Below, in pieces: positions 15,329 through 36,286 of a stretch of DNA of 64,000 bases (its first letter is position 1; each line of letters begins with the position of its first letter). Made by a program: the position numbers and the translations under genes. The notes under the pieces were generated by a model. It was not told where the DNA came from. It saw nothing but the letters and a program-made list of their open reading frames with translations, and did not search any database. The stretch spans positions 1,707-65,706 of the forward strand of contig JADHWO010000005.1 of assembly GCA_016783445.1 (NCBI GenBank). Direction: 5' to 3'. This DNA comes from Candidatus Aminicenantes bacterium (GTDB taxonomy: Bacteria > Acidobacteriota > Aminicenantia > Aminicenantales > Aminicenantaceae).

Positions 15329-17460
15329 TAAACTTTCTTCCGCCTTTTCTTTTAGGTTTCCTGGCACTATCCTTTCAAATTTTTTTATTGAGAGAATTCT
15401 CCGTTCATTTCTACGGAAACGAAATTACTTTTGGATTTATCCTTGCTGCCTGGCTATTGTGGGGTGGCTTGGGAAGCATCTCAGCCTCCAAATTAAAATT
15501 TCATCTCTCACGATTTCCCCAAACATACTATGCTGTAATTCTATTCCTTCCTCTCTGCCTGATCGGACTCAGGTTCTCGCGATTTATCTACAAAACACTC
15601 CCAGGGGAAATCACCGGGATTTTACCGATGTTAATTTCTTCTCTGGTTATTTCTTTTTTTATAAGCTTTCCCCTGGGAATTCTTTTTGTCTTAAATGTTT
15701 TTTTCCTGAAAGGTGATCTTTTTAAGGTTTACCTTCTGGAATCTCTGGGAGCTTCCACAGCAGGATTAGCCGTCTACTTTTTCCTCATACCTGCTTTCTC
15801 CAACTGGTTGGGAGTTTCTATTGTCGGAGTTTCTGTTTCTCTTCTGGTGTTTTTTTCATTTGGAGAAAAAAAACAAATTTATCTCTTATCTATTATCCTC
15901 ATTTTCCTAACCGCTTTTGCCTTATTTGACTTTCCCAGCCAAAAAATATACTGGAAGCCTTTTTTTCTTGTCAGGAGTCAAGACAGCATCTACGGGAAGC
16001 TGCAGGTTATCCAAACCGAGGAGCAGATTTCTCTCTATAACAACAGTTTTCTGGATTATTCTTTTCCAAATCTAGCTGCCTCTGAGGAATCTGTCCACTT
16101 TACTCTTCTCCAGAATCCAGAAGCAAAAAATGTTCTGTTGATTGGCGGAGGAGCAGGTGGAAGTTTAAGGCAGATTCTGAAGTATCCTCAGGTTGAAGTG
16201 GATTATGTCGAGTTAGACCCGGAAATCATTCGACTCTCACTCGAATTTTTGCCTGAGAGTGAGCAAAGGATACTAAAAGACAAACGGGTCCACATATTCT
16301 ATCAGGATGGAAGAGCCTTTCTTAACAAATCTCAGAATAAATACGACATGATTATCCTTAACCTACCCGAACCGGCAACAGCGCAGATAAACCGTTTCTA
16401 TACAAGAGAATTTTTCCTTGAAGCCAGAGAAAAGTTAGGCGAACAAGGCATCTTTTCTTTTCGGATCCCTTCAGCAGAAAATTATATAAGCTTTGAACTT
16501 CAAAACTTCCTTGCCTCGCTGTACTACACCCTCAAAGAAGTGTTCCCTGTTGTTGAAATTGTTCCAGGGAACACAAACATTTTCCTGGCTTCATCTCTTC
16601 CATTAACCATAGAATTTGAAAAGCTTTGCAAAAAAATCAAGGACTTAAACCTCCAGAATACTTATGTCAGCCCCCATATTCTAATTTCTCGCCTTAATCC
16701 GCAAAGAATCAAACTAATCAAAGAAAAGATATACACTGGAAAAAAAACGATTAACCTGGACTTTTCACCTATTGCCTATTTCTATAATTCCGTACTGTGG
16801 AGTACACAGTTTAAAGGTTTAGAGAGGAAAATATTTACTTTTTTTTCAAAACTGCACAGCTTTTGGCTTTTAGACTTACCTTTGATTCTTTTTCTTTCCC
16901 TTCTTCTTATCTTGTGGCTGAAACAAAAGAAATCCACTTTTTTCCTTGTCCCTCTGGCAGTAATGGGTTTTACCACAATCGTTGTTGAAATCATCATGAT
17001 TATCGCCTTTCAAACTCTTTATGGATATGTTTACCGCAGAATTGCTCTCCTCCTCACATCCTTTATGATTGGCCTATTTTTAGGCGCTCTTCGAGGCAAA
17101 AAAAGAAAACGAATTGGTTTAGTGCATCTGCTCTTTATCCAATTTGGTTTTCTACTCCTAATACTCCTGCTCCACATTTTTTTGGAGAAAAATACTCCTG
17201 AACTTTTTTTCTTAATATTTCTTCTTACCCTCGGCTTTCTTGGAGGAGATATGTTTGTTGTTTCAAATCATCTTTTTCTAAAAGAGAGGAAAAACTATGG
17301 CCTTGGCTATGGCTTAGATCTATTAGGTTCTTTCTTTGGTGCACTTGCTGTCTCCTCTCTTCTCATCCCTCTTGTAGGACTCCCTCTGCTTCTCAAATAT
17401 CTTTTGCTCCTTAATTCCTTTTGTTTCATTTTTCTCTTCGGAGGAATGAGAAAATTATAA
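15325..17460 (+). CDS. Membrane-fused spermidine synthase-like (class I SAM-dependent) protein
   Basis: TM blocks at both ends flank VLLIGGGAGG, VELDPEII, DGRAFL, YDMIILNLPEP, FYTREFF. Confidence 0.8.
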   Translation: MINFLPPFLLGFLALSFQIFLLREFSVHFYGNEITFGFILAAWLLWGGLGSISASKLKFHLSRFPQTYYAVILFLPLCLIGLRFSRFIYKTLPGEITGILPMLISSLVISFFISFPLGILFVLNVFFLKGDLFKVYLLESLGASTAGLAVYFFLIPAFSNWLGVSIVGVSVSLLVFFSFGEKKQIYLLSIILIFLTAFALFDFPSQKIYWKPFFLVRSQDSIYGKLQVIQTEEQISLYNNSFLDYSFPNLAASEESVHFTLLQNPEAKNVLLIGGGAGGSLRQILKYPQVEVDYVELDPEIIRLSLEFLPESEQRILKDKRVHIFYQDGRAFLNKSQNKYDMIILNLPEPATAQINRFYTREFFLEAREKLGEQGIFSFRIPSAENYISFELQNFLASLYYTLKEVFPVVEIVPGNTNIFLASSLPLTIEFEKLCKKIKDLNLQNTYVSPHILISRLNPQRIKLIKEKIYTGKKTINLDFSPIAYFYNSVLWSTQFKGLERKIFTFFSKLHSFWLLDLPLILFLSLLLILWLKQKKSTFFLVPLAVMGFTTIVVEIIMIIAFQTLYGYVYRRIALLLTSFMIGLFLGALRGKKRKRIGLVHLLFIQFGFLLLILLLHIFLEKNTPELFFLIFLLTLGFLGGDMFVVSNHLFLKERKNYGLGYGLDLLGSFFGALAVSSLLIPLVGLPLLLKYLLLLNSFCFIFLFGGMRKL

Positions 17461-17584
17461 ATTTTTATCATATTTTCTTGACAGAAATTTTGAATTATGT
17501 TCTACTATAAATTAACCCTTTCATACACTTATCCTATAGTACCTATAGGAAATAGGATCCTATAATTTGAATAAGGAAACTCTG

Positions 17585-17992
17585 ATGAGAATCAACCTCT
17601 CAAAAAGAAATATCAAAGATCCCTTTGTAGTTAAAGTGGAAGAATTAAGCGGCCAGAATCTCCTTGCTTGCTATCAATGCGGCAAGTGTTCGGCTGGATG
17701 CCCTGCAGTCTCTGAAATGGACATCCTTCCCAATCAAATCATCCGTTACGCCCAGCTCGGTTTAAAGAATGAACTCCTGCAATCAAAATCAATCTGGATC
17801 TGCGCTTCCTGTTTTACCTGTAACGCGCGCTGCCCAAAAGGTATTAATATCGCTGAAATTATCGAAGCCATAAGACAGATTTTACTGCGCAAAAGAGAAG
17901 ACCATGTTAATTTAAATAAACTCTCAGACGCAGAAAAAGGAGATGTTCCTCCGATAGCTATCATCAGCAATCTGAGGAAATTTACATCTTAA
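17585..17992 (+). CDS. hdrC: Heterodisulfide reductase subunit C
   Basis: CYQCGKCSAGCP and WICASCFTCNARCP; upstream of hdrB. Alternative start TTG 17567. Confidence 0.88.
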   Translation: MRINLSKRNIKDPFVVKVEELSGQNLLACYQCGKCSAGCPAVSEMDILPNQIIRYAQLGLKNELLQSKSIWICASCFTCNARCPKGINIAEIIEAIRQILLRKREDHVNLNKLSDAEKGDVPPIAIISNLRKFTS

Positions 17993-18044
17993 ATCTAAAC
18001 TATGATAAATAATCACTTTAATATTAATTATATAGGGAATTTTA

Positions 18045-18923
18045 ATGAAAATAAGTTATTATCCTGGTTGTACTCTGAAAAACAATGCTAAAAATTTTGA
18101 AGACTCAACCTTATGTTCCTTAAAAAAACTTGGGATTGAAGTTGAAGAACTTCCACGATGGAACTGTTGTGGAACAGTATTCTCTCTGGCTACTGATGAT
18201 TTGATTCATCACGTAGCTCCTATAAGAAATCTCATCCGAACCAAAGAGTCCAATTCAGAAAAAATTATGACTCTTTGCGCCATGTGTTTTAATACCTTAA
18301 AAAGAGCAAACGAAAGGGTTAAAGCCGATCCAGAGAGCCTGGAAAAAATCAATGATTTTATGTATCTCGAGAAAATCAACTATGAAGGCGATGTTAAGGT
18401 TCTCCACCTCTTGGAGATACTTAGAGATGAAGTAAAATTCGAGAATATTGCCAAAAAAGTGGTTAAACCTTTAAAAAATTTAAAAGTTGCTAACTATTAC
18501 GGATGTCTCCTGGTACGTCCAAAAGAGATTGGCTTAGATGACGTTGAAAATCCGACAATCCTGGAAAATCTCACGACTGTTTTAGGTGCAGATCCTGCAG
18601 ATTTTCCGTTCAAAACCGAATGCTGTGCATCGTATCAAACAGTCGACAAGCCTGAAATTGTGGCTGAAAGAGCTTTCCAAATCCTAACATCAGCTCAATC
18701 ACAGGGCGCTGATGTTGTTGCTGTAAGCTGCCCGCTTTGCGCTTTTAATCTTGACCATAGACAGAAAGAAACTGTTAAAAAATATCCTGAATTCAAAAAT
18801 ATCCCTATTCTCTATTTTTCCCAGATTTTAGCTATTGCATTGAGCTGCCCTGAGGAATCTCTAAGATTTGACCTTCATTTTGTAGATCCAAAACCAATTT
18901 TAAAAGAAAAAGGACTAATCTGA
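18045..18923 (+). CDS. hdrB: Heterodisulfide reductase subunit B
   Basis: YYPGC, WNCCG, YYGCLLVRP, ECCA, CPLC (CCG domains). Confidence 0.92.
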   Translation: MKISYYPGCTLKNNAKNFEDSTLCSLKKLGIEVEELPRWNCCGTVFSLATDDLIHHVAPIRNLIRTKESNSEKIMTLCAMCFNTLKRANERVKADPESLEKINDFMYLEKINYEGDVKVLHLLEILRDEVKFENIAKKVVKPLKNLKVANYYGCLLVRPKEIGLDDVENPTILENLTTVLGADPADFPFKTECCASYQTVDKPEIVAERAFQILTSAQSQGADVVAVSCPLCAFNLDHRQKETVKKYPEFKNIPILYFSQILAIALSCPEESLRFDLHFVDPKPILKEKGLI

Positions 18924-18930
18924 GGAACAA

Positions 18931-19206
18931 ATGACACGTTTTGGCGACTTAAAACCAAAAAAGGGCAAAATCCATATTGAAAAAGACCTGTGCAAAGGAT
19001 GTGGATTCTGCGTGGAATACTGCCCCAAAGATGTCCTTGAACTCTCAGAAGAATTTAATGTTAAAGGGTATCATCCCCCCGTAGTTAAGAATGAGGATGA
19101 TTGCCTTTACTGCCAACTTTGCGAGACAATTTGCCCCGAATTTGCTATATTTGTTACCCAAAAAAAAGAGGAGGAAGAAGGTGAAAAAGGTGAAAGCAGA
19201 CCCTAA
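18931..19206 (+). CDS. 2x[4Fe-4S] ferredoxin, delta subunit of 2-oxoacid:ferredoxin oxidoreductase
   Basis: CKGCGFCVEYCP and CLYCQLCETICPEFAI. Confidence 0.88.
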   Translation: MTRFGDLKPKKGKIHIEKDLCKGCGFCVEYCPKDVLELSEEFNVKGYHPPVVKNEDDCLYCQLCETICPEFAIFVTQKKEEEEGEKGESRP

Positions 19207-20347
19207 AGGAGTTTTAACCGGATCCCATTATTTGGACGGAGATTATGCTCTTGCAGAAGGAGCTCTGGCGGCTGGATGCCGATTCTTCGCGGGCTATCCT
19301 ATCACTCCTTCCACAGAAACCGCTGAAAGATTCTCAGAAAGAATTCCCTCTGTAGGAGGAGTTTTTATCCAGATGGAAGACGAGCTCGCTTCTATTTCAG
19401 CCCTGATTGGAGCTGTCTGGGGAGGAAAAAAAGTAATGACTGTGACCTCCGGCCCGGGCTTTTCTTTGATGATGGAGAATATCGGATTAGCCTGCATGAT
19501 GGAGACTCCTCTTGTGATCGCAAATGTTCAAAGAGGAGGACCTTCGACAGGGCTTCCAACTTTAACAGGACAACAGGATATGATGCAGGCCAGATGGGGT
19601 TCGCACGGAGATTACGAAATCATTGCTCTTTCCCCTGACTCTCCTCAGGAGTGTTTTGACCTTACGATCGAAGCTTTCAATTTATCTGAAACATTCCGTG
19701 TTCCTACCTTTGTTATGACAGATGAGTGTGTGGGCCACATGCATGAGAAAGTTGTCATCCCTCCAGCTGACAAGATCGAACTGGTTGAAAGAAAATGGTA
19801 CAAAGGCCCTAAAGATAAATATCTTCCTTACAAACTTGATAAAGATCAAATCCCATTTATGATCAAAGCGGGTGATGACTATCGATTTCACACAACAGGA
19901 TTAACGCACGATGAACGCGGCTATCCCGTTATTAATGCCGAATGCCAGGATGTCTGTGTCCGTCATCTTGTGGATAAAATTACTACAAATGCGGATAAAA
20001 TCATTAGAACCGAAGAAGAGGAGATAGATACCGCGGAAATCATAGTCATTTCTTACGGAATAACTTCAAGGGTCACAACAAAAGCTGTACAGCAAGCCAG
20101 AAAAGCCGGCATAAAAGTTGGGACTATCAGGCTTATCACTGTCTGGCCCTTCCCAGAGAAGCGAATTAAAGAGCTTGCGAAAAAAGTCAAAGCATTTGTT
20201 GTTCCTGAAATCAATTACGGCCAAATTGTCTTGGAAGTTGAGCGATGCGCTGGAGGTCAAGCCCCGGCTATTCTCGTCCCCCACTGCGGGGGGGGGGTCC
20301 ACGATCCAGATGATATCTTCAGCGCAATCAAGGAGGCTGCAAAATGA
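19181..20347 (+). CDS. 2-oxoacid:ferredoxin oxidoreductase alpha subunit (KorA-like)
   Basis: FAGYPITPS, QMEDE, TSGPGFSLM, VQRGGPSTGLPT. Start set at GTG 19181. Confidence 0.9.
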   Translation: MKKVKADPKGVLTGSHYLDGDYALAEGALAAGCRFFAGYPITPSTETAERFSERIPSVGGVFIQMEDELASISALIGAVWGGKKVMTVTSGPGFSLMMENIGLACMMETPLVIANVQRGGPSTGLPTLTGQQDMMQARWGSHGDYEIIALSPDSPQECFDLTIEAFNLSETFRVPTFVMTDECVGHMHEKVVIPPADKIELVERKWYKGPKDKYLPYKLDKDQIPFMIKAGDDYRFHTTGLTHDERGYPVINAECQDVCVRHLVDKITTNADKIIRTEEEEIDTAEIIVISYGITSRVTTKAVQQARKAGIKVGTIRLITVWPFPEKRIKELAKKVKAFVVPEINYGQIVLEVERCAGGQAPAILVPHCGGGVHDPDDIFSAIKEAAK

Positions 20348-21216
20348 AGGAAGAAGATCATATCGAGGAAAAAAATCCGATCGAAACTTTGCTGAGAATG
20401 GACAGAATCCCCCACATCTGGTGCCCTGGCTGTGGAATTGGAATTGTAGTCACTTCTTTTGCTGAAGCTCTGCGCAAAAGCGAAATCGACCTGGATAAGG
20501 TTGCCGTTGTTTCCGGAATCGGGTGTACAGGAAGAGTAGCTGGATATATTAAGCTGGATTCTTTCCACACAACTCATGGACGAGCTGTTCCCTTTGCCAC
20601 TGGTTTAAAACTTGCAAATCCTGAATTAAAAGTTATTGTATTCAGCGGCGACGGAGACATTGCTGGCATCGGAGGTAACCACTTCATCCATGCAGCAAGA
20701 CGCAATATGGATATTATGGTCATCTGTGTTAATAACTTCAACTATGCCATGACAGGGGGCCAGGTTGCCGCAACAACACCAACAGGTGCCAATGCCTCCA
20801 CAGCCCCTTATGGCAATTTTGAATATCCTTTCAGCCTTCCTTATCTTGCTGAAGCCAGTGGAGCAACGTATGTCGCCCGCTGGACAGCTCTTCATCTCAG
20901 GAGGGTGACCAAATCCATCCAGGAGGCTCTCACTAAGAGAGGATTTTCTTTTATAGAAGTCATAACCCCCTGTGTAACTCTTTACGCACGCAGGAATCGT
21001 CTCGGGGATGGTCTGAACCTTTTGAAATATTATTATGAAAAATCCGAAATCCAGCATGGCGCAGACACCCGAACCCTTGATATCAGTTACCAGGGAAAAC
21101 TCATAGTAGGAAAGTTTGTCGATAAAGAAAAGCCAACTTTTCTCGACTGCATGAATGAACATCTCGCCAAAAAGTTAGGCGACAAATACCAACCATACGG
21201 AGTAAACAATGGCTGA
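20344..21216 (+). CDS. 2-oxoacid:ferredoxin oxidoreductase beta subunit (TPP-binding)
   Basis: WCPGCG, SGIGC, HTTHGRA, GDGD...NN. Confidence 0.92.
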   Translation: MKEEDHIEEKNPIETLLRMDRIPHIWCPGCGIGIVVTSFAEALRKSEIDLDKVAVVSGIGCTGRVAGYIKLDSFHTTHGRAVPFATGLKLANPELKVIVFSGDGDIAGIGGNHFIHAARRNMDIMVICVNNFNYAMTGGQVAATTPTGANASTAPYGNFEYPFSLPYLAEASGATYVARWTALHLRRVTKSIQEALTKRGFSFIEVITPCVTLYARRNRLGDGLNLLKYYYEKSEIQHGADTRTLDISYQGKLIVGKFVDKEKPTFLDCMNEHLAKKLGDKYQPYGVNNG

Positions 21217-21775
21217 GATTAGATTTTCTGGTTTTGGGGGTCAAGGGATTATCCGGTGTGGCCTTATCTCAGGCAAAGCCCTTGCCCTTTATGATAATAA
21301 ACATGCAACAATGACCCAGAGTTTTGGCCCTGAGGCCCGAGGGAGCGCCTGCAGCTCTCAACTCGTTGTTTCTGAAGACCGAGTCCTCTATCCTTACATC
21401 TCAATTCCGGAAATCCTCATTTCCATGTCACAGGAAGCCTATGACAAATACGAGCCGGAATTAAGAGACGATGGAATTTTAATCATTGACAAAGATCTTG
21501 TAAAGGCTAAACCTCCTCGGGGCAAAATCAAAACTTATGCCATCCCTTCCACAAGGTTTGCTGAAGAGTTAGGAAACCGTATCATTGCAAACCTGGTCAT
21601 GCTGGGATTCTTCTCAGCAATAACCAAAATTGCTTCCCCAGAGGCTATGAAAAAAGCACTCCCAGGTTTAGTCCCTGGAAGATTTCTTGAGCTCAACATC
21701 AAGGCTTTTGATAAAGGATATGAATACGGCAAAGAAATATTAAAAAAAGAGAAAAAAACAAAAAGCAAAAAATAA
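21209..21775 (+). CDS. 2-oxoacid:ferredoxin oxidoreductase gamma subunit
   Basis: IRFSGFGGQGII, SFGPEARG, NLVMLG. Confidence 0.92.
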   Translation: MAEIRFSGFGGQGIIRCGLISGKALALYDNKHATMTQSFGPEARGSACSSQLVVSEDRVLYPYISIPEILISMSQEAYDKYEPELRDDGILIIDKDLVKAKPPRGKIKTYAIPSTRFAEELGNRIIANLVMLGFFSAITKIASPEAMKKALPGLVPGRFLELNIKAFDKGYEYGKEILKKEKKTKSKK

Positions 21776-21788
21776 AAAGGTAAAAAAA

Positions 21789-23735
21789 ATGAAGCGAACC
21801 GGTGTTTTTATCTGTCACTGCGGTATAAACATCGCGGGGACAGTGGATGTGAAAAAAGTTGCCAAGGAGCTTTCTAATCACACAGGAGTCGTTCACTCAG
21901 AAGAATACATATACATGTGTTCTGACCCGGGTCAGAACCTTATTATAGAAGCCATAAAGGAAAATCAACTGGACAGCGTGGTCGTCGCCTGTTGTTCTCC
22001 GACTCTCCATGAAACAACTTTCAGAAACACCGTCAAGTCAGCCGGAATTAATCCGTTCCAGTGTGAGATCGCAAATATCCGGGAACAATGCAGCTGGGTT
22101 CATAAAGACATGGAAAAGGCAACAGAAAAAGCAATAAAACTTACAAAAAGTGCAGTAGAGAGAGTTCACAGAAATGAATCTCTGGATCCGATAAGCATCC
22201 CTGTCACCCGGAGAGCGCTGGTGGTTGGTGGAGGGATAGCAGGAATCCAGTCAGCTTTAGATTTAGCCAACAGCGGTTATGAAGTAATCCTAGTAGAAAG
22301 GTCTCCTTCAATTGGAGGCCATATGATCCAGCTTTCTGAAACCTTCCCTACCCTGGACTGTTCCCAGTGTATTCTGACACCAAAAATGGTTGAAGTCTCC
22401 AAACATCCTAAGATCAAACTTTTAACCTACAGCGAAATTCAAGATATTTCTGGATATGTTGGAAACTTTAAGGTCAAAATCCTTAAAAAACCCACTTATG
22501 TTGATCCGGATAAATGTACTCTCTGCGACGAATGCACCAAGGTCTGCCCTGTGGTTGTGCCTAACGAATTTGATCTGGGTTTAACTGGACGGCGCGCTGT
22601 CTACATGCCTTTCCCTCAAGCTATTCCTGCTACTTATACTCTGGACATAAAATCTTGCCCGGGCCTCCTGCCTATTGCCTGCGGCAAATGTGCGGATGTC
22701 TGTGAACCAGAAGCTATTGATTACGATATGAAACCAGAGATTGTCGAAGAAGAGGTCGGAGCGATCATTGTTGCCACTGGATTTGACCTTTATGACAAAG
22801 AATTAATGGCCGAATACGGGCATGGAAAATATGCGGATGTTCTGGATGGTCTTCAGTTTGAAAGGTTATGTTCTGCCTCAGGCCCAACAACGGGAAAAAT
22901 TCTCAGGCCTTCAGACCACAAAGAACCAAAAGAGGTTGTCTTTATACAATGTGTTGGCTCTCGTGATCCTGAACTTCACTGCGCTTATTGCTCAAAAATA
23001 TGCTGCATGTACACAGCCAAACACGCCATGCTCTACAAACATCATGTTCCTGACGGGCAGGCTTATATTTTCTATATTGATATCAGGTCTGGAGGAAAAG
23101 GCTACGAGGAATTTGTCCAGAGAGCTGTCGAAGAGGATGGTGCTCTTTATCTTCGAGGAAAGGTTTCAAAAATATTTGAAGACAAAGGCAAAATCAAAGT
23201 CTGGGGTGTTGATACACTCTCTGGAAAAGATATTGAGATTGATGCAGATATGGTCGTCCTGGCGACAGCAATGCGACCGTCTGAAGGAGCTGAAGAGCTT
23301 GCCAAAAAACTTAAAATCGCTTTGGATAAAGACGGTTTTCTCTCAGAAGCCCATCCAAAACTCAGGCCTGTTGAGAGCGTTACTCCCGGGATGTTCCTTG
23401 CAGGAGCCGCTCAAGCCCCAAAAGACATTCCAGAAGCCGTAGCTCAAGCAAGCGGTGCTGCTGCTAAAGCCATTGCCATTTTATCCCAGGAAAGACTTTT
23501 CCATGCTCCTACAGTAGCCAAGGTTAATGTTAATCTCTGTACAGGCTGCGGAATGTGCGTTCATGTCTGTCCATATGATTCTCTCTCCCTTAAGGATGGT
23601 AAAGCAGAAGTGAACGAAGTCCTCTGTGAAGGATGCGGAACATGCTCTGCAACCTGCTTAAGGGCAGCCATAGAGGTAAAAAATCTTACTCCTTTACAGG
23701 TTAATGAAATGATAGGAGCGTCCCTCGGAGGCTGA
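21789..23735 (+). CDS. hdrA: Heterodisulfide reductase subunit A (FAD/Fe-S)
   Basis: GVFICHCGINI, NIREQCSWVH, GGGIAG, TFPTLDC, IQCVGSRD, YCSKICCMY, HPKLRPV, C-terminal ferredoxin. Confidence 0.95.
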   Translation: MKRTGVFICHCGINIAGTVDVKKVAKELSNHTGVVHSEEYIYMCSDPGQNLIIEAIKENQLDSVVVACCSPTLHETTFRNTVKSAGINPFQCEIANIREQCSWVHKDMEKATEKAIKLTKSAVERVHRNESLDPISIPVTRRALVVGGGIAGIQSALDLANSGYEVILVERSPSIGGHMIQLSETFPTLDCSQCILTPKMVEVSKHPKIKLLTYSEIQDISGYVGNFKVKILKKPTYVDPDKCTLCDECTKVCPVVVPNEFDLGLTGRRAVYMPFPQAIPATYTLDIKSCPGLLPIACGKCADVCEPEAIDYDMKPEIVEEEVGAIIVATGFDLYDKELMAEYGHGKYADVLDGLQFERLCSASGPTTGKILRPSDHKEPKEVVFIQCVGSRDPELHCAYCSKICCMYTAKHAMLYKHHVPDGQAYIFYIDIRSGGKGYEEFVQRAVEEDGALYLRGKVSKIFEDKGKIKVWGVDTLSGKDIEIDADMVVLATAMRPSEGAEELAKKLKIALDKDGFLSEAHPKLRPVESVTPGMFLAGAAQAPKDIPEAVAQASGAAAKAIAILSQERLFHAPTVAKVNVNLCTGCGMCVHVCPYDSLSLKDGKAEVNEVLCEGCGTCSATCLRAAIEVKNLTPLQVNEMIGASLGG

Positions 23736-23737
23736 AA

Positions 23738-24160
23738 ATGGCAGAAGAATTTGAGCCAAAAATAGTTGCGTTTCTTTGTAAATGGTGCTCCTCGGCAGGA
23801 AGCGACCTGGCCGGAGTTTCCCGGATGGAATATCCCTATAATGTCGTCCCGATCACTGTCATGTGCTCGGGGAGTATTTCCCCCCTTTACATTCTGTCTG
23901 CCTTCAGCAGAGGAGCTGATGGAGTTCTGGTCTCCGGATGCCATCCCGGTGACTGTCATTATATAAAAGGTAATTTTTATGCTCGCCGGAGAATTGCGCT
24001 AATAAACAAACTTTTGGATTTTATAGGTCTTGAACCCCAGCGCTTCCAGATGTCCTGGGTTTCTGCGGCTGAAGGGACAAAATACACAGAAATCATCAAA
24101 GATTTTGTCAAAGAACTCAAACCTCTTGGGCCTCAAACAAAATTGGGGAGAGACCTCTAA
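23738..24160 (+). CDS. MvhD/FlxD-like [2Fe-2S] subunit
   Basis: PKIVAFLCKWC, MCSG, GADGVLVSGCHPGDCHY, WVSAAEG. Confidence 0.9.
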   Translation: MAEEFEPKIVAFLCKWCSSAGSDLAGVSRMEYPYNVVPITVMCSGSISPLYILSAFSRGADGVLVSGCHPGDCHYIKGNFYARRRIALINKLLDFIGLEPQRFQMSWVSAAEGTKYTEIIKDFVKELKPLGPQTKLGRDL

Positions 24161-25191
24161 TGGTAAGCCTCGAAGACCTCAAAAAAGAAGCTAAACAAAT
24201 ATTAAAGGAAAATAAAGTCAAATACATCATCGGCTATAAAAAAAGCACCAACGGCCTGATGCCTGTCCCTGCCTTTATAAAAGAGCCTGAAGAAGTTGAG
24301 AAACTCGTCTGGGATCCAACATGCGTGTTTAACCTTACCCGTTATCTTGTTGATGAAAAAAGAAGGAAAACCAAGGAAAAGGAACCGGATGAAAGACCGG
24401 TGGGACTTGTGGTTAAAGGATGCGACAGCCGAGCCATTAATATATTGCTTCAGGAAAAATTCATAAACCGGGAGGATGTATACCTTCTAGGAGTTTCCTG
24501 TGAAAACACCGGAGTTCTTGACGAGAAAAAACTGACAAAAAAAATAAAAGGCGAAAAAGTTAAAAAAGTTGAATTTGACGAAAAGGATAATTTTATAATT
24601 ACCACTCAGGAAGGAAAAACCAAAATCCCTGCCAAAGAGATACTTGCAAACAGATGCCTTGAATGCAAGGCAAATTTTCCTGTTATTTATGATGTTCTTC
24701 TTGGAGAAAAAGCAAAACGGAGCATAGATAATCCTTTTGAATCTATAGAAAAAATTGAGTCCTTATCTACGGAAGAACGATGGACATTCTGGAAAAAGCA
24801 GCTCGATAAATGCATCCGCTGCTATGCCTGCCGCTCTGTATGCCCGATGTGCTACTGCGACGAATGCGTCGCAGATACAATAAGCTTTGCTGTAACTGCT
24901 GACACAACCGCAGAGGAAAAGGCACAAAAAATCAAATGGGTGGAAAAATCGCCTGTCTCTTCAGAAAATTTTATCTACCATATGGTTAGAGCCATTCATC
25001 TTGCTGGCCGCTGTATTGACTGCGGAGAATGCGAACGAGCCTGTCCTCTGGATATCCCTCTCCGGTTCTTGAATAGAAAATTAGAAAAAGAGGCCAAGGA
25101 ACTTTTTGGCTTTGAAGCTGGCTTTGACCCAGACCAACCTTCTTTAATTTCTTGCTTTAAAGATGAAGACCCGGAAGATTTTATCAGGTGA
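24160..25191 (+). CDS. FlxC-like (FdhB/FrhB-related) Fe-S protein
   Basis: KGCDSRA, CIRCYACRSVCPMCYC, HLAGRCIDCGECERACP. Confidence 0.75.
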   Translation: MVSLEDLKKEAKQILKENKVKYIIGYKKSTNGLMPVPAFIKEPEEVEKLVWDPTCVFNLTRYLVDEKRRKTKEKEPDERPVGLVVKGCDSRAINILLQEKFINREDVYLLGVSCENTGVLDEKKLTKKIKGEKVKKVEFDEKDNFIITTQEGKTKIPAKEILANRCLECKANFPVIYDVLLGEKAKRSIDNPFESIEKIESLSTEERWTFWKKQLDKCIRCYACRSVCPMCYCDECVADTISFAVTADTTAEEKAQKIKWVEKSPVSSENFIYHMVRAIHLAGRCIDCGECERACPLDIPLRFLNRKLEKEAKELFGFEAGFDPDQPSLISCFKDEDPEDFIR

Positions 25192-25195
25192 GACG

Positions 25196-26236
25196 ATGCA
25201 AAAGGTACTGACAAAAAAATCCCTCCCACAATGGGTGAAGAAGCTTTTGTCTTATACAATATATACTCCGGTTGAGGAAGACGATCACTGGAACTTTGTT
25301 GCCACCGATAATCCAGAGGATATAAACCTGGATTATCCCCTCACCACCCTCTCTCCAAAAAAAATTATCTTTCCCCAGAGAGAGATCTTTTTAGAATTTT
25401 GCGATTCAACCGAAGGAAACCCTGAAGTCAAAGAGGTTCTCCCTGCAGAAAAGTCAGCGGTTATCTTTGGTGTGAGACCGTGTGATGCAAAAGCTCTTAC
25501 TTTTACAGATAAAGTCTTTGGCGGCGATTTTAAAGATATCTACTACTGGAAAAGAAGAAATCAAACAACACTGGTTGGAATCTCTTGTAATACCCCTCCT
25601 TACACGAATTGCTTCTGTGTCTCCGTTAATGGCTCTCCATATTCCAAGGAGGGCCTGGATATTTTATTGACGGATTTGGGTGATAAATATTTTGTCGAAA
25701 CCTATACAAAAAAGGGAGAGAAGCTCCTCAATCTCGCAAAGGGCCTATTTAAGAGCCCAACAGCTAAGGACAAGAAGGATTTAGAAAAAATCCGGATAGA
25801 CTCCAAGAAAAAAATCAAACGGCAAATTAAAAACATAAAAAAAATTCCGCCCAAACTTAAAGAAATGTTCGATTCGCCATTCTGGGACGAAGAATCTATG
25901 AGCTGCCTGCGATGCGGTATTTGCACTTATCTCTGCCCAACATGTCATTGCTTTGATATAAATGACGAAATTACCTCTTCCTCTCCAATCAAAGGGAAAA
26001 GGATAAGGACATGGGATACCTGTCAGTTCCCAGATTTCACCATGCATTCTTCAGGGCACAATCCCAGGCCGGACAAAGCCTCCCGTTTGCGCCAGAGAAT
26101 CCTTCATAAATTTTTATATTTTGTCGACAGGTACCAGAATTATCAATGTACAGGCTGTGGAAGATGTATTTCGTTATGTCCGGTAGGCATAGATCTTTTA
26201 GAAGTTCTCGATAAGGTGAGAGATTATGGATCCTAA
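25196..26236 (+). CDS. FlxB/AsrA-like 4Fe-4S protein
   Basis: FGVRPCD, CFC, CLRCGICTYLCPTCHCFD, CTGCGRCISLCPVGI. Confidence 0.8.
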   Translation: MQKVLTKKSLPQWVKKLLSYTIYTPVEEDDHWNFVATDNPEDINLDYPLTTLSPKKIIFPQREIFLEFCDSTEGNPEVKEVLPAEKSAVIFGVRPCDAKALTFTDKVFGGDFKDIYYWKRRNQTTLVGISCNTPPYTNCFCVSVNGSPYSKEGLDILLTDLGDKYFVETYTKKGEKLLNLAKGLFKSPTAKDKKDLEKIRIDSKKKIKRQIKNIKKIPPKLKEMFDSPFWDEESMSCLRCGICTYLCPTCHCFDINDEITSSSPIKGKRIRTWDTCQFPDFTMHSSGHNPRPDKASRLRQRILHKFLYFVDRYQNYQCTGCGRCISLCPVGIDLLEVLDKVRDYGS

Positions 26237-27050
26237 TACATATATTCCAAAACTGGCCAAAATAACCCATATCAAGGAAGAAGTCGGCGGCGCCAGGCCC
26301 ATCAAAACATTTCGGACTCAATTTTTTGAGAATAATAATTTTTCATTTAAATGCGGACAGTGTGCTATGCTCTCTGTGTTTGGAAAAGGGGAATCGATGA
26401 TTTCTATCTCATCTACCCCGCTTATTAAAGACTACCTTCAATTCAGCATCTTAAAAATGGGAAGGGTTACATCGTCCCTCCACGAAAAACAAGTCGAGGA
26501 TATTATTGGAATCAGGGGACCTTACGGAAATGGTTTCCCTGTAGAGAAGTGGAAAAGAAAAAACCTTATCTTTATCGGCGGGGGGATTGGCTTAGCTCCA
26601 ATCTGGTCTGTCCTCAACACAGCGCTGGGTAAAAGAGAAGATTATGGAGACCTCACACTGATATACGGAGCCAGAACTTCTAAAGACCTGGTTTTCAAAG
26701 AAGAGCTGGAAGAACTTAGAAAAAAAATGACAGTCCATCTTTCCGTGGATGTTGAGGAGCCTGACTGGAAAGAATTCGTCGGGTTTGTTCCTCAGAATGT
26801 TCTGGATAAAAAGCCCTCTCCCAAAAATGCTATAGCTGTCACATGTGGTCCTCCTATCATGATCAAATTTGTCATTAAAGCTCTTGAAGACCTCGGATTT
26901 AAGGATGAACAGATTTATACTACTGTTGAGAACAAGATGAAATGCGGTGTCGGGAAATGCGGAAAATGTAACATAGGCATACACTATGTATGTCAAGATG
27001 GTCCTGTCTATTCATGGGCCGAACTAAAAAAACTGCCCCAGGAATATTAA
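26226..27050 (+). CDS. FlxA/AsrB-like FAD/NAD(P)-binding [2Fe-2S] oxidoreductase
   Basis: GIRGPYGNGF, GGGIGLAP, CGPPIM, KMKCGVGKCGKC...VCQDGPV. Confidence 0.85.
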   Translation: MDPNTYIPKLAKITHIKEEVGGARPIKTFRTQFFENNNFSFKCGQCAMLSVFGKGESMISISSTPLIKDYLQFSILKMGRVTSSLHEKQVEDIIGIRGPYGNGFPVEKWKRKNLIFIGGGIGLAPIWSVLNTALGKREDYGDLTLIYGARTSKDLVFKEELEELRKKMTVHLSVDVEEPDWKEFVGFVPQNVLDKKPSPKNAIAVTCGPPIMIKFVIKALEDLGFKDEQIYTTVENKMKCGVGKCGKCNIGIHYVCQDGPVYSWAELKKLPQEY

Positions 27051-27065
27051 TAAGGAGATATCTCG

Positions 27066-27794
27066 ATGGCAACAAAAAAACCAGCCAAAAAGAAGCCCGC
27101 AAAACAAACCAAAGCCAAAGCCACTGAAAAAACTGCAACTGTATTCATCATGGGAAAAGCCCATAAAGTGCCTGCTGATGCAACAATAATGGGCGCTATA
27201 GAGTATGCTGGCTATCAGATAAAAAGAGGCGCAGGATGCCGCGAAGGCTTCTGTGGAGCCTGTGCCACTGTGTATCGTCTGCCTGGTGATTACAAAATTT
27301 ATACCGGACTTGCCTGTACAACGCTCGTTGAAGAAGGGATGTGGCTTTCTCAGCTTCCTGCTATCCCTGACCAAAAACCTATTTACAACCTCAACAAGCT
27401 GGAGCCAAATGTCTCGACTTTTCAAAAGCTTTTTCCTGAACTTTTCCGGTGTGTTGCTTGCAACACCTGCACCAAGGCCTGCCCTCAAGATTTAGAGGTT
27501 ATGGACTATATCCAGGCTGCCATAAGAGGAGACATTGAAAAGGTCATGGACCTTTCTTTTGACTGCCTTAGCTGTGGTCTATGCGCCATCCGGTGCCCGG
27601 CAGAAATTGTTCAATACAACGTTGGACTACTCGCAAAAAGACTATACGGAAAATACCTGTCTAAGGAAAGTAAACAACTAAAAAAGAGGATAAAAGAGGT
27701 TAAAAGACATAAATACGATAAAGAATACAAAGAATTCAAAAAAATGAAAAAAGAAGAATTAAAAAAGAAATACTATGAAAGAGACCTCGAATAA
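27066..27794 (+). CDS. Fumarate reductase-type Fe-S subunit (TfrB/SdhB N-terminal-like)
   Basis: [2Fe-2S] motif GCREGFCGAC...LAC plus CVACNTCTKACP and CLSCGLCAIRCP; no CCG domain. Confidence 0.75.
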   Translation: MATKKPAKKKPAKQTKAKATEKTATVFIMGKAHKVPADATIMGAIEYAGYQIKRGAGCREGFCGACATVYRLPGDYKIYTGLACTTLVEEGMWLSQLPAIPDQKPIYNLNKLEPNVSTFQKLFPELFRCVACNTCTKACPQDLEVMDYIQAAIRGDIEKVMDLSFDCLSCGLCAIRCPAEIVQYNVGLLAKRLYGKYLSKESKQLKKRIKEVKRHKYDKEYKEFKKMKKEELKKKYYERDLE

Positions 27795-27862
27795 AAAAAG
27801 GATTAATCATAAAGAAACATGATAAATAAAAGTGTTGCTCGTAATATAATAAGGAGAGTCAG

Positions 27863-29530
27863 ATGTACCCAGAAAGTATGAGACCATCACTCGAAAAAGT
27901 TATTCAAACCCGGAATAAAAGGTTTGAGCTCGCTAAGTCAGGAAAACCTGTTTTCCCTCCCATGAGCGCAGAAGAAAGGGAGGAAGTTCTTAATGAATTT
28001 CATCCCGACTATAAGCCTGATTCAAGGCGCAAAATCCGTTTAGGTCCGAATAAAGGAGAAAACCTTACTACAGAAGTGACAGACATGCTGGAATCCCATT
28101 CAAGAATTAAACCTGAACTCTTCGATTTAACCCGTCCTGACTATGAGACAGACATCTTGATAATTGGTGGAGGCGGTGCAGGTTGTGCAGCAGCTATCAT
28201 TGCCATGGAAAATGGAGCAAAATCAATCATTTCCACTAAACTGCGCCTTGGTGATGCCAATTCCATGATGTCACAGGGAGGTATGCAGGCAGCCGTTCCT
28301 GAGAAAGACTCCCCTGCTTGTCACTATTTGGATGCTATTGGCGGGGGTCACTTTGACAATAAACCCGATCTTGTTCGTGCCCTCACTGAAGATGGCCCTG
28401 ATGTTGTCAAGTGGTTAGAAGACTTGGGTGTCGTCTGGGATAAACTGGAAGACGGCTCATTACAAGTCCTTCATGGAGGAGGGACATCAAGAAAAAGAAT
28501 GCATTCCTGCAGGGATTATACAGGTGCAATTATAATGCGGACGTTAATGGATAAAGTAAGAAATAATCCTGACAAAATCAGCATACTCGAATTTATGCCT
28601 ATAGTCGAACTCATCCTGGACAACAAGGGTCGATGTGCAGGAGGAGTCCTTTATAATCTTGAAACAGAAGAATATTTTACTGTTAAAGCCAGAGCAACAA
28701 TTATCGCTACAGGAGGATACGGGCGATTACACATAAGAGGATATGACACAACAAATCATTACGGTGCCACCGGCGACGGCCTCGTTATTGCCTATCGTGC
28801 CGGTGCAAAGCTCCTTTTTATGGATTCTGTTCAATATCATCCTACTGGTTCTGTCTTCCCTGAACAGATTGCAGGATTCCTGATTACTGAAAAGATAAGA
28901 GGAGCTGGCGGGCAGCCTCTCAATAAACAAGGAAAACTTTTTGTCTTTCCTCGTGAGCCAAGGGATGTTGAGAGTTCAGCCTTCATCAAAGAATGTCTTG
29001 AGAGACATAACGGCATCAAAACCCCCAGCGGCCGCCTTGGAGTTTGGCTTGATTCTCCCCTTATTGAAATGATTCAGGGAGAAGGCTACATCAACAAGCA
29101 ATTTCCTGCCATGCATCGCCAATTTATCCGCTACGGAATCGACATAACTAAAGAACCCATGCTTGTCTATCCTTCCCTTCACTACCAGAACGGCGGTGTA
29201 GAGATAAACGAAAAATGTGAAACCAACATTCCTGGACTGTATGTGGCTGGAGAAGCTTCAGGCGGAGTGCACGGTCGTAATCGGCTTATGGGAAATTCTG
29301 TTCTGGATTATAATGTTTTTGGACGTCGTGCCGGAATATATGCTGCTCAACATACCAAGTCTGCTAAGCTCGGAACATTAACATTAGAACATATCCGAAA
29401 TTTTGAGAATGAATTAAAAAAAGCAAGAGTTAAAACAGACCTCATTACACCTATCCTGCTGCCTTCATATACCCCAGAAGATGTTAGAAAGCGCCAAGTG
29501 ACTGCTCACTATGAAGGAACACTACGGTAG
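27863..29530 (+). CDS. Succinate dehydrogenase/fumarate reductase family flavoprotein (TfrA-like)
   Basis: IIGGGGAG, QYHPTG, LITEKIRGAGG, EPRD, LHYQNGG, HGRNRLMGNS. Confidence 0.85.
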   Translation: MYPESMRPSLEKVIQTRNKRFELAKSGKPVFPPMSAEEREEVLNEFHPDYKPDSRRKIRLGPNKGENLTTEVTDMLESHSRIKPELFDLTRPDYETDILIIGGGGAGCAAAIIAMENGAKSIISTKLRLGDANSMMSQGGMQAAVPEKDSPACHYLDAIGGGHFDNKPDLVRALTEDGPDVVKWLEDLGVVWDKLEDGSLQVLHGGGTSRKRMHSCRDYTGAIIMRTLMDKVRNNPDKISILEFMPIVELILDNKGRCAGGVLYNLETEEYFTVKARATIIATGGYGRLHIRGYDTTNHYGATGDGLVIAYRAGAKLLFMDSVQYHPTGSVFPEQIAGFLITEKIRGAGGQPLNKQGKLFVFPREPRDVESSAFIKECLERHNGIKTPSGRLGVWLDSPLIEMIQGEGYINKQFPAMHRQFIRYGIDITKEPMLVYPSLHYQNGGVEINEKCETNIPGLYVAGEASGGVHGRNRLMGNSVLDYNVFGRRAGIYAAQHTKSAKLGTLTLEHIRNFENELKKARVKTDLITPILLPSYTPEDVRKRQVTAHYEGTLR

Positions 29531-29607
29531 CCAGCACTTTTCCGAAACGCCCAGCCTGACCAATACTATTATCTACTTTCACCCATAAGAAATGCTTGCA
29601 TTTTCTT

Positions 29608-29635
29608 TTGACTTTTTGAACAAATTTGATATAGT
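29608..29635 (+). promoter_or_regulatory. Putative sigma70 promoter for the PilZ gene
   Basis: TTGACT-16 bp-TATAGT with extended TG. Confidence 0.45.
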
Positions 29636-29811
29636 GTAAACGCGATTTATATTAAGGGTGAGGGTGTTTTTCACTTCTGCTCATGGAAAGACAACATATT
29701 TTCTTAGAGGTACATTCACAAGAAACAGAAAATAAAGAGGGCGAGAATTTAAGCCTCATTTTCCCACAGCTCAATTTTAACGCTGTTGAGAAATTAAAAA
29801 GGAGGCCATGA

Positions 29812-30255
29812 ATGGAATATAAGGGGCAAGAAAGAAGAGAATGTAACCGGTTTAAGATTCCCGGCGCAGCAGTAAACTACTCGTTAAAAAAGAGTTCCTC
29901 CTCAACAAAAAAAGAGAACGAAGAAACGAATTGGGAAGAAGAATTTTGTCCTGTTCTAGACATGAGTTGCGGGGGACTCAGATTTCAGGCAAAAAAGCCT
30001 CTTGAAATTAATTCTGAGATGACAGTGAAAATATCCATTCCTGGCGAACACCTCCCTCTAACCCTTAATGGACAGGTTCGATGGCTGTCTTATGATAATG
30101 ATAAAAATATTTATCAAGTCGGGATCGGATTTAATCCTTATGGAGAAAAAGAAGGCCAGAATTATCCCGGTCTTATGGTAAAAATCCTTGCGTTAGAACA
30201 AAAATTTTCAACTCCAGGCAAATCTGATACTGAGAAATTTGAAATCGAAGGCTGA
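29812..30255 (+). CDS. PilZ-domain c-di-GMP-binding protein
   Basis: RxxxR (RRECNR) and DxSxxG (DMSCGG) motifs; strong SD AAGGAGG. Confidence 0.85.
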   Translation: MEYKGQERRECNRFKIPGAAVNYSLKKSSSSTKKENEETNWEEEFCPVLDMSCGGLRFQAKKPLEINSEMTVKISIPGEHLPLTLNGQVRWLSYDNDKNIYQVGIGFNPYGEKEGQNYPGLMVKILALEQKFSTPGKSDTEKFEIEG

Positions 30256-34888: not shown

Positions 34889-34889
34889 T

Positions 34890-36239: not shown

Positions 36240-36286
36240 TGTGTAATTATTCCTTATTCCAAATCAATTCAATTGAGTCAAACAGA

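Follow-up and report, generated by a model that had tools for sequence, protein, structure and literature searches.

A 13-gene Hdr-OFOR-Flx-fumarate reductase operon of Candidatus Aminicenantes as a candidate electron-bifurcating module

The window analyzed here is a 64,000-nucleotide stretch of contig JADHWO010000005.1 from a Candidatus Aminicenantes bacterium, whose draft genome spans 2.89 Mb in 153 contigs and is 90% complete. Between window positions 17585 and 29530 (11,946 bases), 13 co-oriented open reading frames (ORFs) occupy the + strand, with gaps of -29 to +68 bases between adjacent genes. They encode heterodisulfide reductase (Hdr) subunits, a four-subunit 2-oxoacid oxidoreductase (OFOR), a set of Flx-like proteins, and an iron-sulfur (Fe-S) subunit paired with a fumarate-reductase-like flavoprotein. 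A first-pass annotation, made from the sequence letters, had described these as tightly spaced genes in the order hdrC, hdrB, OFOR delta/alpha/beta/gamma, hdrA, mvhD/flxD, flxC, flxB, flxA, Fe-S subunit, and flavoprotein. The ORF list of the window and the Pfam and NCBIfam profile searches, on which the gene identities are based, agree with that description. The individual features are as follows.

17461..17584, + strand: AT-rich intergenic region of 124 bases 5' of hdrC, with a promoter-like match at 17512-17540 (consensus match only)
17585..17992, + strand: hdrC-like, two [4Fe-4S] (Fer4_8 5e-12; best match CoB_CoM_SS_C; TIGR03290 86.8 bits, cut-off 160)
18045..18923, + strand: hdrB-like, two CCG domains with non-cubane cluster motifs (methanogen HdrB 8rvu_b 7.6e-43)
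18931..19206, + strand: OFOR delta, two [4Fe-4S], OorD/KorD-like (OGOR_delta NF042987 5e-21, 74.6 bits, cut-off 125)
19091..20347, + strand: OFOR alpha (NF006412 554 bits, above the cut-off of 411; 1yd7_A 3.6e-111; 8ys5_A 5.5e-83)
20344..21216, + strand: OFOR beta, binding thiamine pyrophosphate (2-oxoglutarate:ferredoxin oxidoreductase beta 8ys5_C 3.1e-60)
21209..21775, + strand: OFOR gamma (POR family 2.9e-32; NF006323 196.5 bits, cut-off 235)
21789..23735, + strand: hdrA, full-length bifurcating-type flavoprotein (5odc_A 3.2e-219, residues 3-641; HdrA2 model 835 bits, cut-off 1100)
23738..24160, + strand: mvhD/flxD-like connector subunit (FlpD 9.2e-51)
24160..25191, + strand: flxC-like Fe-S protein (FrhB_FdhB_C and 4Fe-4S motifs)
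25163..26236, + strand: flxB-like Fe-S protein, AsrA/sulfhydrogenase beta-like (Pyrococcus sulfhydrogenase I beta 9nez_B 1.6e-53)
26226..27050, + strand: flxA-like subunit binding NAD(P)H and flavin adenine dinucleotide (FAD), 2Fe-2S motif (NAD_binding_1 1.2e-19; DHODB_Fe-S_bind 6.9e-9)
27066..27794, + strand: FrdB/TfrB-like Fe-S subunit, one 2Fe-2S motif, two CxxCxxCxxxCP motifs, lysine-rich tails
27863..29530, + strand: fumarate-reductase-like flavoprotein, 555 residues (FAD_binding_2 2e-76)

The ATG of hdrC at 17585 is preceded by an aaggaaa ribosome-binding site, and OFOR alpha has three candidate starts (ATG 19091, GTG 19181, or GTG 19190, with homology beginning at about 19220). The block is set off by the AT-rich stretch on its 5' side and by a gap of 281 bases on its 3' side. 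Promoter-like matches in the scanned region show no excess over shuffled sequence (23 versus a mean of 22.2). Terminator-like sites number 26 versus a shuffle mean of 13.3, yet they are weak and scattered on both strands. Short contigs of relatives, 90-99% alike, in the runs X19 and X20 bridge the hdrB/oorD, oorA/oorB, oorB/oorC, oorC/hdrA, hdrA/mvhD, and flxA/Fe-S junctions. These runs are labeled metatranscriptomic and flagged as probably DNA, and the bridging contigs are not counted as evidence of co-transcription.

The proposal that the module is soluble agrees with a 19-residue hydropathy scan, which revealed no membrane-spanning stretch in any of the 13 proteins. A few windows score at least 1.6, all of them in oorC, flxA, or the flavoprotein (in the flavoprotein at its Rossmann motif).

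The Hdr subunits possess the architecture of methanogen HdrABC, with a full-length HdrA, an HdrC carrying two 4Fe-4S clusters, and an HdrB carrying two CCG motifs. HdrA matches over its entire length the bifurcating HdrA of the solved methanogen Mvh-Hdr complex (5odc_A). Cysteine conservation was assessed in alignments of 40 sequences, with the HdrB set limited to loci encoding HdrC and the Fe-S subunit too. Of the ten CCG-motif cysteines in HdrB, nine (C41, C42, C78, C81, C154, C193, C194, C229, and C232) never vary, and C9 occurs in 90% or more of the sequences. In HdrC, C32, C35, C39, C73, C76, C79, and C83 are invariant, and the eight cluster cysteines are conserved like those of HdrB. All three subunits miss the NCBIfam cut-offs for CoB-CoM heterodisulfide reductase (for HdrB, 175 versus 345 bits; HdrA and HdrC as listed above). 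By these models the proteins have Hdr architecture yet fall outside the methanogen equivalogs. The operon hdrB is also the only stand-alone two-CCG ORF of the HdrB type found in the genome.

A Flox-Hdr system is recognized by an NAD(P)H- and FAD-binding FlxA with a 2Fe-2S motif, Fe-S proteins FlxB and FlxC, and an MvhD-like FlxD, all adjoining hdrABC. This entire set is present in the operon. On sequence, either NADH or NADPH may be the donor to Flx.

Embedded in the hdr block is the OFOR, whose substrate class the first-pass annotation had left to a phylogenetic comparison of KOR with POR/VOR enzymes. The sole NCBIfam cut-off passed by its subunits belongs to NF006412, a model named only "2-oxoacid:acceptor oxidoreductase," and the OorA, OorB, OorC, and OorD equivalog models all score below their cut-offs. 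The closest solved sequences to the alpha subunit are a Pyrococcus 2-keto acid enzyme (1yd7_A) and a chain named 2-oxoglutarate synthase or 2-oxoglutarate:ferredoxin oxidoreductase (8ys5), and the PorA and VorB models score far lower. The gene order delta-alpha-beta-gamma is that of the four-subunit Kor/OorDABC type. In a 17-row tree of beta subunits, the operon protein joins the Hdr- and fumarate-reductase-linked OFOR betas of other phyla, and the POR/VOR betas of the same genome form a distant outgroup (100/100). Thus, profile models, matches to solved structures, and the beta tree all place the enzyme with the KOR/OOR type. The best reading of these comparisons is that it is a 2-oxoglutarate:ferredoxin oxidoreductase, with its substrate specificity as a prediction. 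Four further OFOR-type loci exist in the genome: two of the POR/VOR type, one two-subunit KorAB, and one weak case (POR_N 66.5 bits in a 633-residue ORF on contig C89).

The last gene of the operon encodes a flavoprotein that aligns with E. coli FrdA and mycobacterial SdhA (7d6v_A, 1.2e-67; E. coli FrdA, 4e-51). Its AlphaFold model (pLDDT 88.6, pTM 0.89) has E. coli FrdA as its best structural match (1kf6_A, TM 0.67, 450 of 555 columns aligned). Alignment to E. coli FrdA reveals HPT, E..R, RD, HY..GG, and NRL motifs, which we take to be the fumarate-binding and protonating residues of FrdA. Indeed, Q324, H326, P327, E343, R346, R367, D368, H440, R474, and L475 are invariant among 50 family members from many phyla. 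Equally invariant is the asparagine N133, which stands where FrdA and SdhA have the histidine that binds FAD covalently through an 8-alpha linkage, presumably H44 of E. coli FrdA. FrdA mutants that have lost covalent FAD reportedly reduce fumarate and do not oxidize succinate. In light of that mutant work, N133 predicts an enzyme that reduces fumarate without succinate oxidation. Several lines therefore point to a one-way fumarate reductase with non-covalently bound FAD as the predicted function of this protein.

Other features set the flavoprotein family apart. It has a confidently folded N-terminal extension of 95 residues with a conserved HPDY motif, it gave no Pfam match to Succ_DH_flav_C, and the C-terminal domain of SdhA is absent. 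Scores also fall below the curated cut-offs for TfrA (345 versus 718), SdhA/FrdA (286.5 versus 567), and NadB (TIGR00551, 275 versus 452.75). The true nadB of the genome (482.5 bits) is located with nadC on contig C150. With every catalytic motif kept and a separate nadB present, the earlier assignment of a fumarate reductase flavoprotein appears sound at the level of the active site.

In the partner Fe-S subunit, twelve cysteines are invariant among 40 sequences. Its match to the TfrB model is weak (35.9 bits), and it lacks a CCG domain. The NCBIfam TfrB model is instead matched in pieces by the Fe-S subunit, HdrC, and HdrB, which suggests that methanogen TfrB is a natural fusion of such parts. 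A two-subunit enzyme is supported by a representative protein of 727 residues (P0005), in which an Fe-S subunit with 2Fe-2S and two 4Fe-4S motifs is fused to the N terminus of the flavoprotein. The tails of the Fe-S subunit (residues 1-24 and about 185-242) are strongly lysine-rich.

Conservation of this arrangement was examined in a scan of 185,579 species genomes, which returned 336 relatives. The best 80 loci were kept, and arrangements were counted in the 48 of these with at least 9.3 kb 5' of the flavoprotein gene. The order seen in the window, including flxCBA, recurs in 39 of the 48 Aminicenantes-type loci. Eight lack flxCBA, two of which also lack mvhD, and one retains only flxB-flxA-FeS-flavoprotein. 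OFOR genes lie directly 5' of hdrA in 47 of the 48. Such an arrangement is far beyond chance. Gene order, which the first-pass annotation proposed to check, is conserved here, and the Hdr-OFOR-fumarate reductase linkage recurs in other phyla. An evenly drawn sample of 151 genomes of the class has the flavoprotein, at E <= 1e-100, in 52 genomes from 34 of 59 genera. These include every one of the 19 further genomes sampled from the family to which the window belongs. A literature search found no description of this gene cluster in Aminicenantes.

Variants of the operon were also encountered. The Aminicenantes loci lacking flx genes are L025, L045, L047, L058, L067, L072, L076, and L077 (and L028 and L042). 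Five flx-less genomes were inspected for FlxB elsewhere: two encode a protein 53-54% identical, and three have only paralogs of about 30% identity. In genome G085 (L302), the order hdrC-hdrB-hdrA-mvhD-FeS-flavoprotein-oorDABC places the OFOR outside the hdr block. A locus from the window's own family (L301, G137:C2:158000-177000), when compared with window positions 13302-30255, has the same operon and the same flanks. Its first 11 genes are 70-92% identical to those of the window, and the Fe-S subunit and flavoprotein are 61% and 57% identical. This terminal pair belongs to a clade that groups with Acetothermia/Bipolaricaulota, and it appears that only the fumarate reductase pair has been replaced.

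A closely similar cluster has been described from tubeworm symbionts. In the available parts of two reports (PMC6315080, PMC11636981), reductive tricarboxylic acid (rTCA) islands carry korABCD between hdrA and hdrBC, together with tfrAB and flxABCD, and NADH-driven bifurcation onto fumarate reductase and the 2-oxoglutarate oxidoreductase is proposed. The cluster is given as tfrAB-hdrCB-korDABC-hdrA-flxDCBA for tubeworm symbionts and Thioflavicoccus mobilis (Rubin-Blum, Dubilier, Kleiner 2019, PMC6315080). Endoriftia transcripts, as presented in the accessible portion of a 2024 Nature Microbiology article (PMC11636981), show the cluster co-expressed, including its intergenic regions, with the exception of tfrAB. 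The idea of this mechanism is thus already in print in what is available of both reports and is not a new inference here.

The relationship was measured protein by protein in the genome of the Escarpia laminata symbiont, which was reached through locus L240. All 13 orthologs occur there, co-oriented, in a single 12.6-kb block of one contig (G186:C13:28060-40668, L289). Identities to the window proteins are 66% for the Fe-S subunit, 71% for the flavoprotein, 55% for hdrC, 61% for hdrB, 59% for oorD, 71% for oorA, 67% for oorB, 69% for oorC, 69% for hdrA, 67% for mvhD, 48% for flxC, 48% for flxB, and 62% for flxA. Like the window, the symbiont block contains all 13 families with the kor genes between hdrCB and hdrA, and the same mechanism has been proposed for it. 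Gene order differs only in the Fe-S/flavoprotein pair, which is placed 5' in the symbiont block and 3' in the window operon. Because all 13 orthologs are united in one block, the window operon is the same entity with its terminal pair moved. The symbiont block belongs to an autotroph and has acl, acn, idh, mdh, pntAB, and rnf genes around it, as far as the available text describes it (PMC6315080), whereas the window block lies amid unrelated genes. The neighbors typical of the rTCA island (ATP-citrate lyase, aconitase, isocitrate dehydrogenase [IDH], malate dehydrogenase, pntAB, rnf) were not found in the flanks of the window operon, and TCA genes are on other contigs.

At 48-71% identity, the Escarpia block is closer to the window than are some Aminicenantes versions (55-60%). 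The symbiont sequence groups with the main Aminicenantes clade in a flavoprotein tree of 36 rows (supports 100/98, 100/98, 99/93). Rows G085, G147, and G089 of this tree were disregarded due to wrong-strand ORFs and a branch 5.7 long. Monophyly of Aminicenantes to the exclusion of the symbiont sequence is not rejected by an approximately unbiased (AU) test (p = 0.103, for a group named after seeing the tree). Taken together, these comparisons suggest horizontal transfer between Aminicenantes and symbiont lineages, with neither side claimed as donor.

A different pair was encountered among sulfur-oxidizing Gammaproteobacteria, including tubeworm and lucinid symbionts (L157, L240, and 24 further loci), which carry a second, about 43% identical Fe-S/flavoprotein pair. 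At L157 (2371-10139), mdh is followed by this pair, a NuoF-like FMN/NADH subunit, and a two-subunit KorAB. No close HdrA was found in the lucinid symbiont genome carrying L157 or in 30 genomes of its order, and this type of locus looks like a different, Hdr-free, NADH-linked design. L157 was considered as a route to the published symbiont cluster and was rejected on recognizing that it holds a different paralog.

To survey other phyla, an alignment of distant family members served as the query, the best 80 of at least 594 loci were retained, and the 13 proteins were compared by tblastn. Arrangements were counted in 47 loci with at least 9.3 kb upstream, and gene content of selected loci was determined by Pfam. 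The most frequent pattern (18 of 47 loci, mostly Clostridia, 17 in a Clostridia-type order) is Hdr-MvhD-FlxCBA followed by the pair, without an OFOR. Another 17 loci, many from Nitrospirales, contain the pair alone with no Hdr genes within 9.3 kb. OFOR genes are present as well in five, and the remaining seven have other arrangements, such as Hdr genes without flxCBA or a single gene. The core of Hdr, KOR, and fumarate reductase occurs in at least five phyla, including loci of Anaerolineales, Acetothermia, Thermoplasmata, and Bacillota with other gene orders.

What differs among these loci is the module in the place of flxCBA. In L180 (Thermoplasmata) and L196 (Acetothermia), KOR-type genes, hdrA, and mvhD come first, followed by genes for a NiFe hydrogenase (small subunit, then large), then hdrC/hdrB, and finally the Fe-S/flavoprotein pair. 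The hydrogenase genes take the position of flxCBA (L180, 5285-7781; L196, 4262-7228), and L196 also carries a fumarase gene and a HycI protease. In a Thermoplasmatales locus (L158, 4655-6930), a pair resembling a DHODB Fe-S protein and GltD/NfnB occupies that position, and an Anaerolineales locus (L132) has Flx as its input module. Judging from gene content, L180, L196, and L158 may be versions of the same core driven by H2 or NADPH. Across the loci, the core of Hdr, KOR-type OFOR, and fumarate reductase is constant and the donor varies among Flx, an Mvh-type hydrogenase, an Nfn-like pair, or none. A constant bifurcating core that accepts exchangeable donors of intermediate potential would be expected to leave such a pattern.

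The contexts of the flavoprotein family extend to genes of the TCA cycle, as its members adjoin sucCD, mdh, or fumarase genes. Two of these neighborhoods are of the rTCA kind: sucC-sucD lies directly 3' of the pair in both Nitrospira (L162) and Leptospirillum (L125), and in the latter aconitase and citryl-CoA lyase genes precede it. One locus (L118) holds two hdrC-hdrB pairs.

The first-pass annotation recommended looking in the genome for succinyl-CoA synthetase, fumarase, and dsrC, and genes of all three kinds are present, the last as a DsrC-like gene. One cluster contains sucD, sucC, fumarase beta, mdh, idh, and acnB, with the fumarase alpha gene located separately. Citrate synthase is encoded elsewhere, as are a canonical SdhAB that adjoins cytochrome b, an Rnf/Nqr-type subunit, and the large subunits of two NiFe hydrogenases. 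The DsrC-like protein, with both of its C-terminal cysteines, is encoded on contig C151 (L116, 6738-9071). Its gene adjoins one for a 209-residue protein without a family match and stands beside one for a 450-residue DsrK/HdrD-like protein with Fer4_8 and CCG domains. Consequently, the earlier statement that no hydrogenase, dsrC, or membrane anchor is present holds for the cluster and fails for the genome.

Contig C3 (L099, 42-8308) carries an operon resembling those for citryl-CoA synthetase and citryl-CoA lyase (CCS/CCL-like). It encodes a SucC-like protein of 547 residues, a SucD-like protein, a citryl-CoA lyase (278 bits, cut-off 212), a 177-residue protein without a family match, two large and one small aconitase-family subunits, and a protein like IDH or homoisocitrate dehydrogenase. 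A CCL-like gene is found in 42 of 52 genomes bearing the Hdr-OFOR-Flx operon, 12 of 99 others, and 54 of 151 in the class sample overall. For a DsrC-like gene, the corresponding numbers are 42 of 52, 58 of 99, and 100 of 151. These tallies were made by hand and are descriptive only, since related genomes are not independent, and the CCL matches include seven weak ones, at 37-41% identity and in longer ORFs. The CCS/CCL-like operon is not used as proof of an rTCA cycle.

Given citrate synthase, AcnB, IDH, a second OFOR of the KorAB type, and canonical SdhAB, neither reductive step is forced onto the operon. The original suggestion of an engine for both reductive TCA steps is supported in part, by a KOR-type OFOR and a flavoprotein with fumarate reductase motifs. 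Aminicenantes are also described in the literature as fermenters.

On balance, we consider it probable, by a modest degree, that the operon encodes a soluble, quinone-independent Hdr/Flx bifurcating system in which fumarate is the high-potential acceptor and ferredoxin or the KOR is the low-potential acceptor. A Flx module made of FlxABC and the MvhD-like FlxD would oxidize NAD(P)H and feed the bifurcating flavin of HdrA. The high-potential electron would then pass through HdrC and HdrB to the Fe-S/flavoprotein pair, which would act as a one-way fumarate reductase with non-covalent FAD and yield succinate. The low-potential electron would move to ferredoxin, or straight to the predicted 2-oxoglutarate:ferredoxin oxidoreductase of the operon, entering at its delta subunit. 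Fumarate would thereby assume the role of the methanogen heterodisulfide. We infer the bifurcation, the direct wiring through HdrBC, NADH or NADPH as the donor, and the direction of the OFOR from gene content and homology. The single HdrB-type gene in the genome implies that there is no separate thiol-oxidizing CCG subunit to serve the fumarate reductase.

Several observations weigh against this scheme. The support offered in the available parts of the published reports consists of a model and transcript data (PMC6315080, PMC11636981), and in the transcripts Endoriftia tfrAB departed from the expression pattern of the cluster (PMC11636981, as far as accessible). Nearly all subunits, OFOR alpha excepted, score below NCBIfam curated cut-offs. 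The absence of flxCBA from 8 of 48 Aminicenantes-type loci, together with the finding that three of five such genomes have only FlxB paralogs of about 30% identity, indicates that NAD(P)H input is not universal. Likewise, among the 47 loci of other phyla, 17 have the pair without nearby Hdr genes. A thiol carrier is possible, given a DsrC-like protein that retains its two C-terminal cysteines. Citrate synthase, AcnB, IDH, SdhAB with cytochrome b, and the KorAB OFOR mean that the reductive direction is not required to supply 2-oxoglutarate. The description of Aminicenantes as fermenters is a further point against.

Among other explanations, there is a minor but real chance that the operon is a fermentative electron sink without channeling, in which NADH is discharged onto fumarate and reduced ferredoxin goes to hydrogenases or Rnf. 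The OFOR would then run oxidatively from 2-oxoglutarate to succinyl-CoA, or would be a co-regulated enzyme of a TCA branch, with no CO2 fixation and no contact between Hdr and OFOR. Such a role would fit the fermentative lifestyle described for these bacteria, the genome's ferredoxin sinks (the Rnf/Nqr-type subunit and two NiFe hydrogenases), and its oxidative route to 2-oxoglutarate. It would also fit the 18 of 47 loci, mostly in Clostridia, that have Hdr, Flx, and fumarate reductase genes without an OFOR, and the "succinate operon" of Pseudoclostridium thermosuccinogenes is read in this manner in the accessible portion of its report (PMC7282089). However, 47 of 48 loci retain the OFOR within the hdr block, members of this OFOR family accompany Hdr and fumarate reductase genes in distant phyla as well, and the orthologous symbiont block lies in an rTCA island according to the available text (PMC6315080). 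This linkage and context weigh against mere co-regulation and do not fix the direction of the OFOR. Somewhat more doubtful is coupling through a thiol, in which Flx-Hdr would reduce ferredoxin and a disulfide (DsrC-like or a small thiol pair), in line with the Desulfovibrio proposal, and the Fe-S/flavoprotein pair would re-oxidize the diffusible thiol carrier on fumarate in the manner of methanogen Tfr, with the parts being co-regulated. A DsrC-like protein with a two-cysteine arm is indeed encoded beside a DsrK/HdrD-like protein, L118 has two hdrC-hdrB pairs as expected if each enzyme had its own, and the accessible text of the published model names this as an alternative route (PMC11636981). 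Nevertheless, with one HdrB-type gene and an Fe-S subunit lacking CCG, the fumarate reductase itself would lack a site for thiols. Presence of the DsrC-like gene is only loosely associated with that of the operon (42 of 52 operon-bearing versus 58 of 99 other genomes), and the gene was not found in the nearest relative (G135, 89% complete).

It is very improbable that the true substrate of the flavoprotein is something else than fumarate, such as L-aspartate, another enoate, or a thiol-linked acceptor, which would mean that the operon is not a fumarate reductase system at all. The low scores against the TfrA, SdhA/FrdA, and NadB models, the missing SdhA C-terminal domain, and the family-specific extension with its HPDY motif would be explained in this way. 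Against this stand the invariance of all dicarboxylate-binding and proton-transfer motifs, the dedicated nadB-nadC elsewhere in the genome, and the sucCD, mdh, or fumarase genes that adjoin family members. In addition, NadB stands alone, whereas here an Fe-S partner is adjacent and, in P0005, fused. Bifurcation onto fumarate and ferredoxin or the KOR thus remains our preferred interpretation.

Comparison with other systems helps to place the operon. The FlxABCD-HdrABC system of Desulfovibrio vulgaris is said to use DsrC as its proposed high-potential acceptor. The window shares its subunit set (NAD(P)H/FAD-binding FlxA, Fe-S FlxB and FlxC, MvhD-like FlxD, and HdrABC) and, unlike that system, has a built-in fumarate reductase pair and an OFOR. 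In methanogens, TfrAB together with Mvh-Hdr and KorABCD reportedly serves an incomplete reductive TCA branch. To our knowledge, the thiols coenzyme M and coenzyme B are not expected in bacteria. The window resembles the methanogen Tfr system in having a soluble fumarate reductase and the same logic leading from fumarate to succinate to 2-oxoglutarate, and the Mvh-type hydrogenase inside the Acetothermia and Thermoplasmata clusters is a further methanogen-like trait. In contrast to TfrA, the window flavoprotein has an N-terminal extension, lacks the C-terminal domain, and scores far below the TfrA cut-off. Moreover, the CCG subunit is shared with HdrA in the window, whereas it is fused to the Fe-S subunit in methanogen TfrB.

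The closest counterpart lacking an OFOR is the P. thermosuccinogenes operon, in which fumarate hydratase, Flx-Hdr, and fumarate reductase genes are combined and which is read as NADH-dependent, ferredoxin-reducing fumarate reduction in the available portion of the report (PMC7282089). Its arrangement, hdrB-hdrC-hdrA-mvhD-flxCBA-FeS-flavoprotein, is represented by the 17 Clostridia-type loci, with 50-55% identical Fe-S/flavoprotein pairs. It differs from the window in lacking the OFOR and in having hdrB ahead of hdrC, and the same transfer from NADH to fumarate and ferredoxin is proposed.

The surroundings of the operon in the window are of other kinds. Upstream (13302-17460) are genes for a DUF362 protein, a radical SAM enzyme, and a 711-residue membrane SpeE-like protein, a set that also lies 5' of the operon in relatives, and downstream are a PilZ gene and glyQS. 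Farther along are the glycine-cleavage genes gcvT, gcvH, gcvPA, and gcvPB (33440-38033), and a type I restriction-modification locus with hsdR, hsdS, hsdM, two small extra genes, and a YgjP-like peptidase (39711-47903). A protein of 1694 residues with beta-propeller (SBBP) repeats is encoded at 56499-61583. No tRNA was found in the window and no 16S rRNA in the genome.

For the window alone, the outcome is confirmatory, since it places a known and still-hypothetical module in another lineage. The additions made here concern exchange of the donor module, variants without flx genes or with a swapped pair, the contexts in Nitrospira and Leptospirillum, and the measured identity to the symbiont block. 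There is also a more speculative reading, which we hold only tentatively and think unlikely as a whole. In it, HdrABC, the KOR-type OFOR, and a fumarate reductase with non-covalent FAD would form one ancient, portable bifurcation core, in which HdrBC would be a pure Fe-S wire without a thiol and the OFOR would be docked on HdrA. Lineages would plug in donors based on NAD(P)H/Flx, H2/Mvh, or Nfn-like proteins. Aminicenantes would run a reversible or reductive TCA cycle with this core and the CCS/CCL-like operon, and an Aminicenantes-like lineage would be the source of the rTCA module of tubeworm symbionts.

The system is widespread, as it is represented in 52 of 151 sampled genomes of the class and in loci of many other phyla. 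If the bifurcation model is right, fumarate reduction would pay for the production of reduced ferredoxin from NAD(P)H. The reductive TCA branch would thereby lose its chief energetic barrier, the need for very low-potential electrons in 2-oxoglutarate synthesis, with neither membranes nor quinones involved. The Aminicenantes, Clostridia, and hydrogenase-linked versions offer starting points for the biochemical test of a hypothesis that has been standing since 2019.

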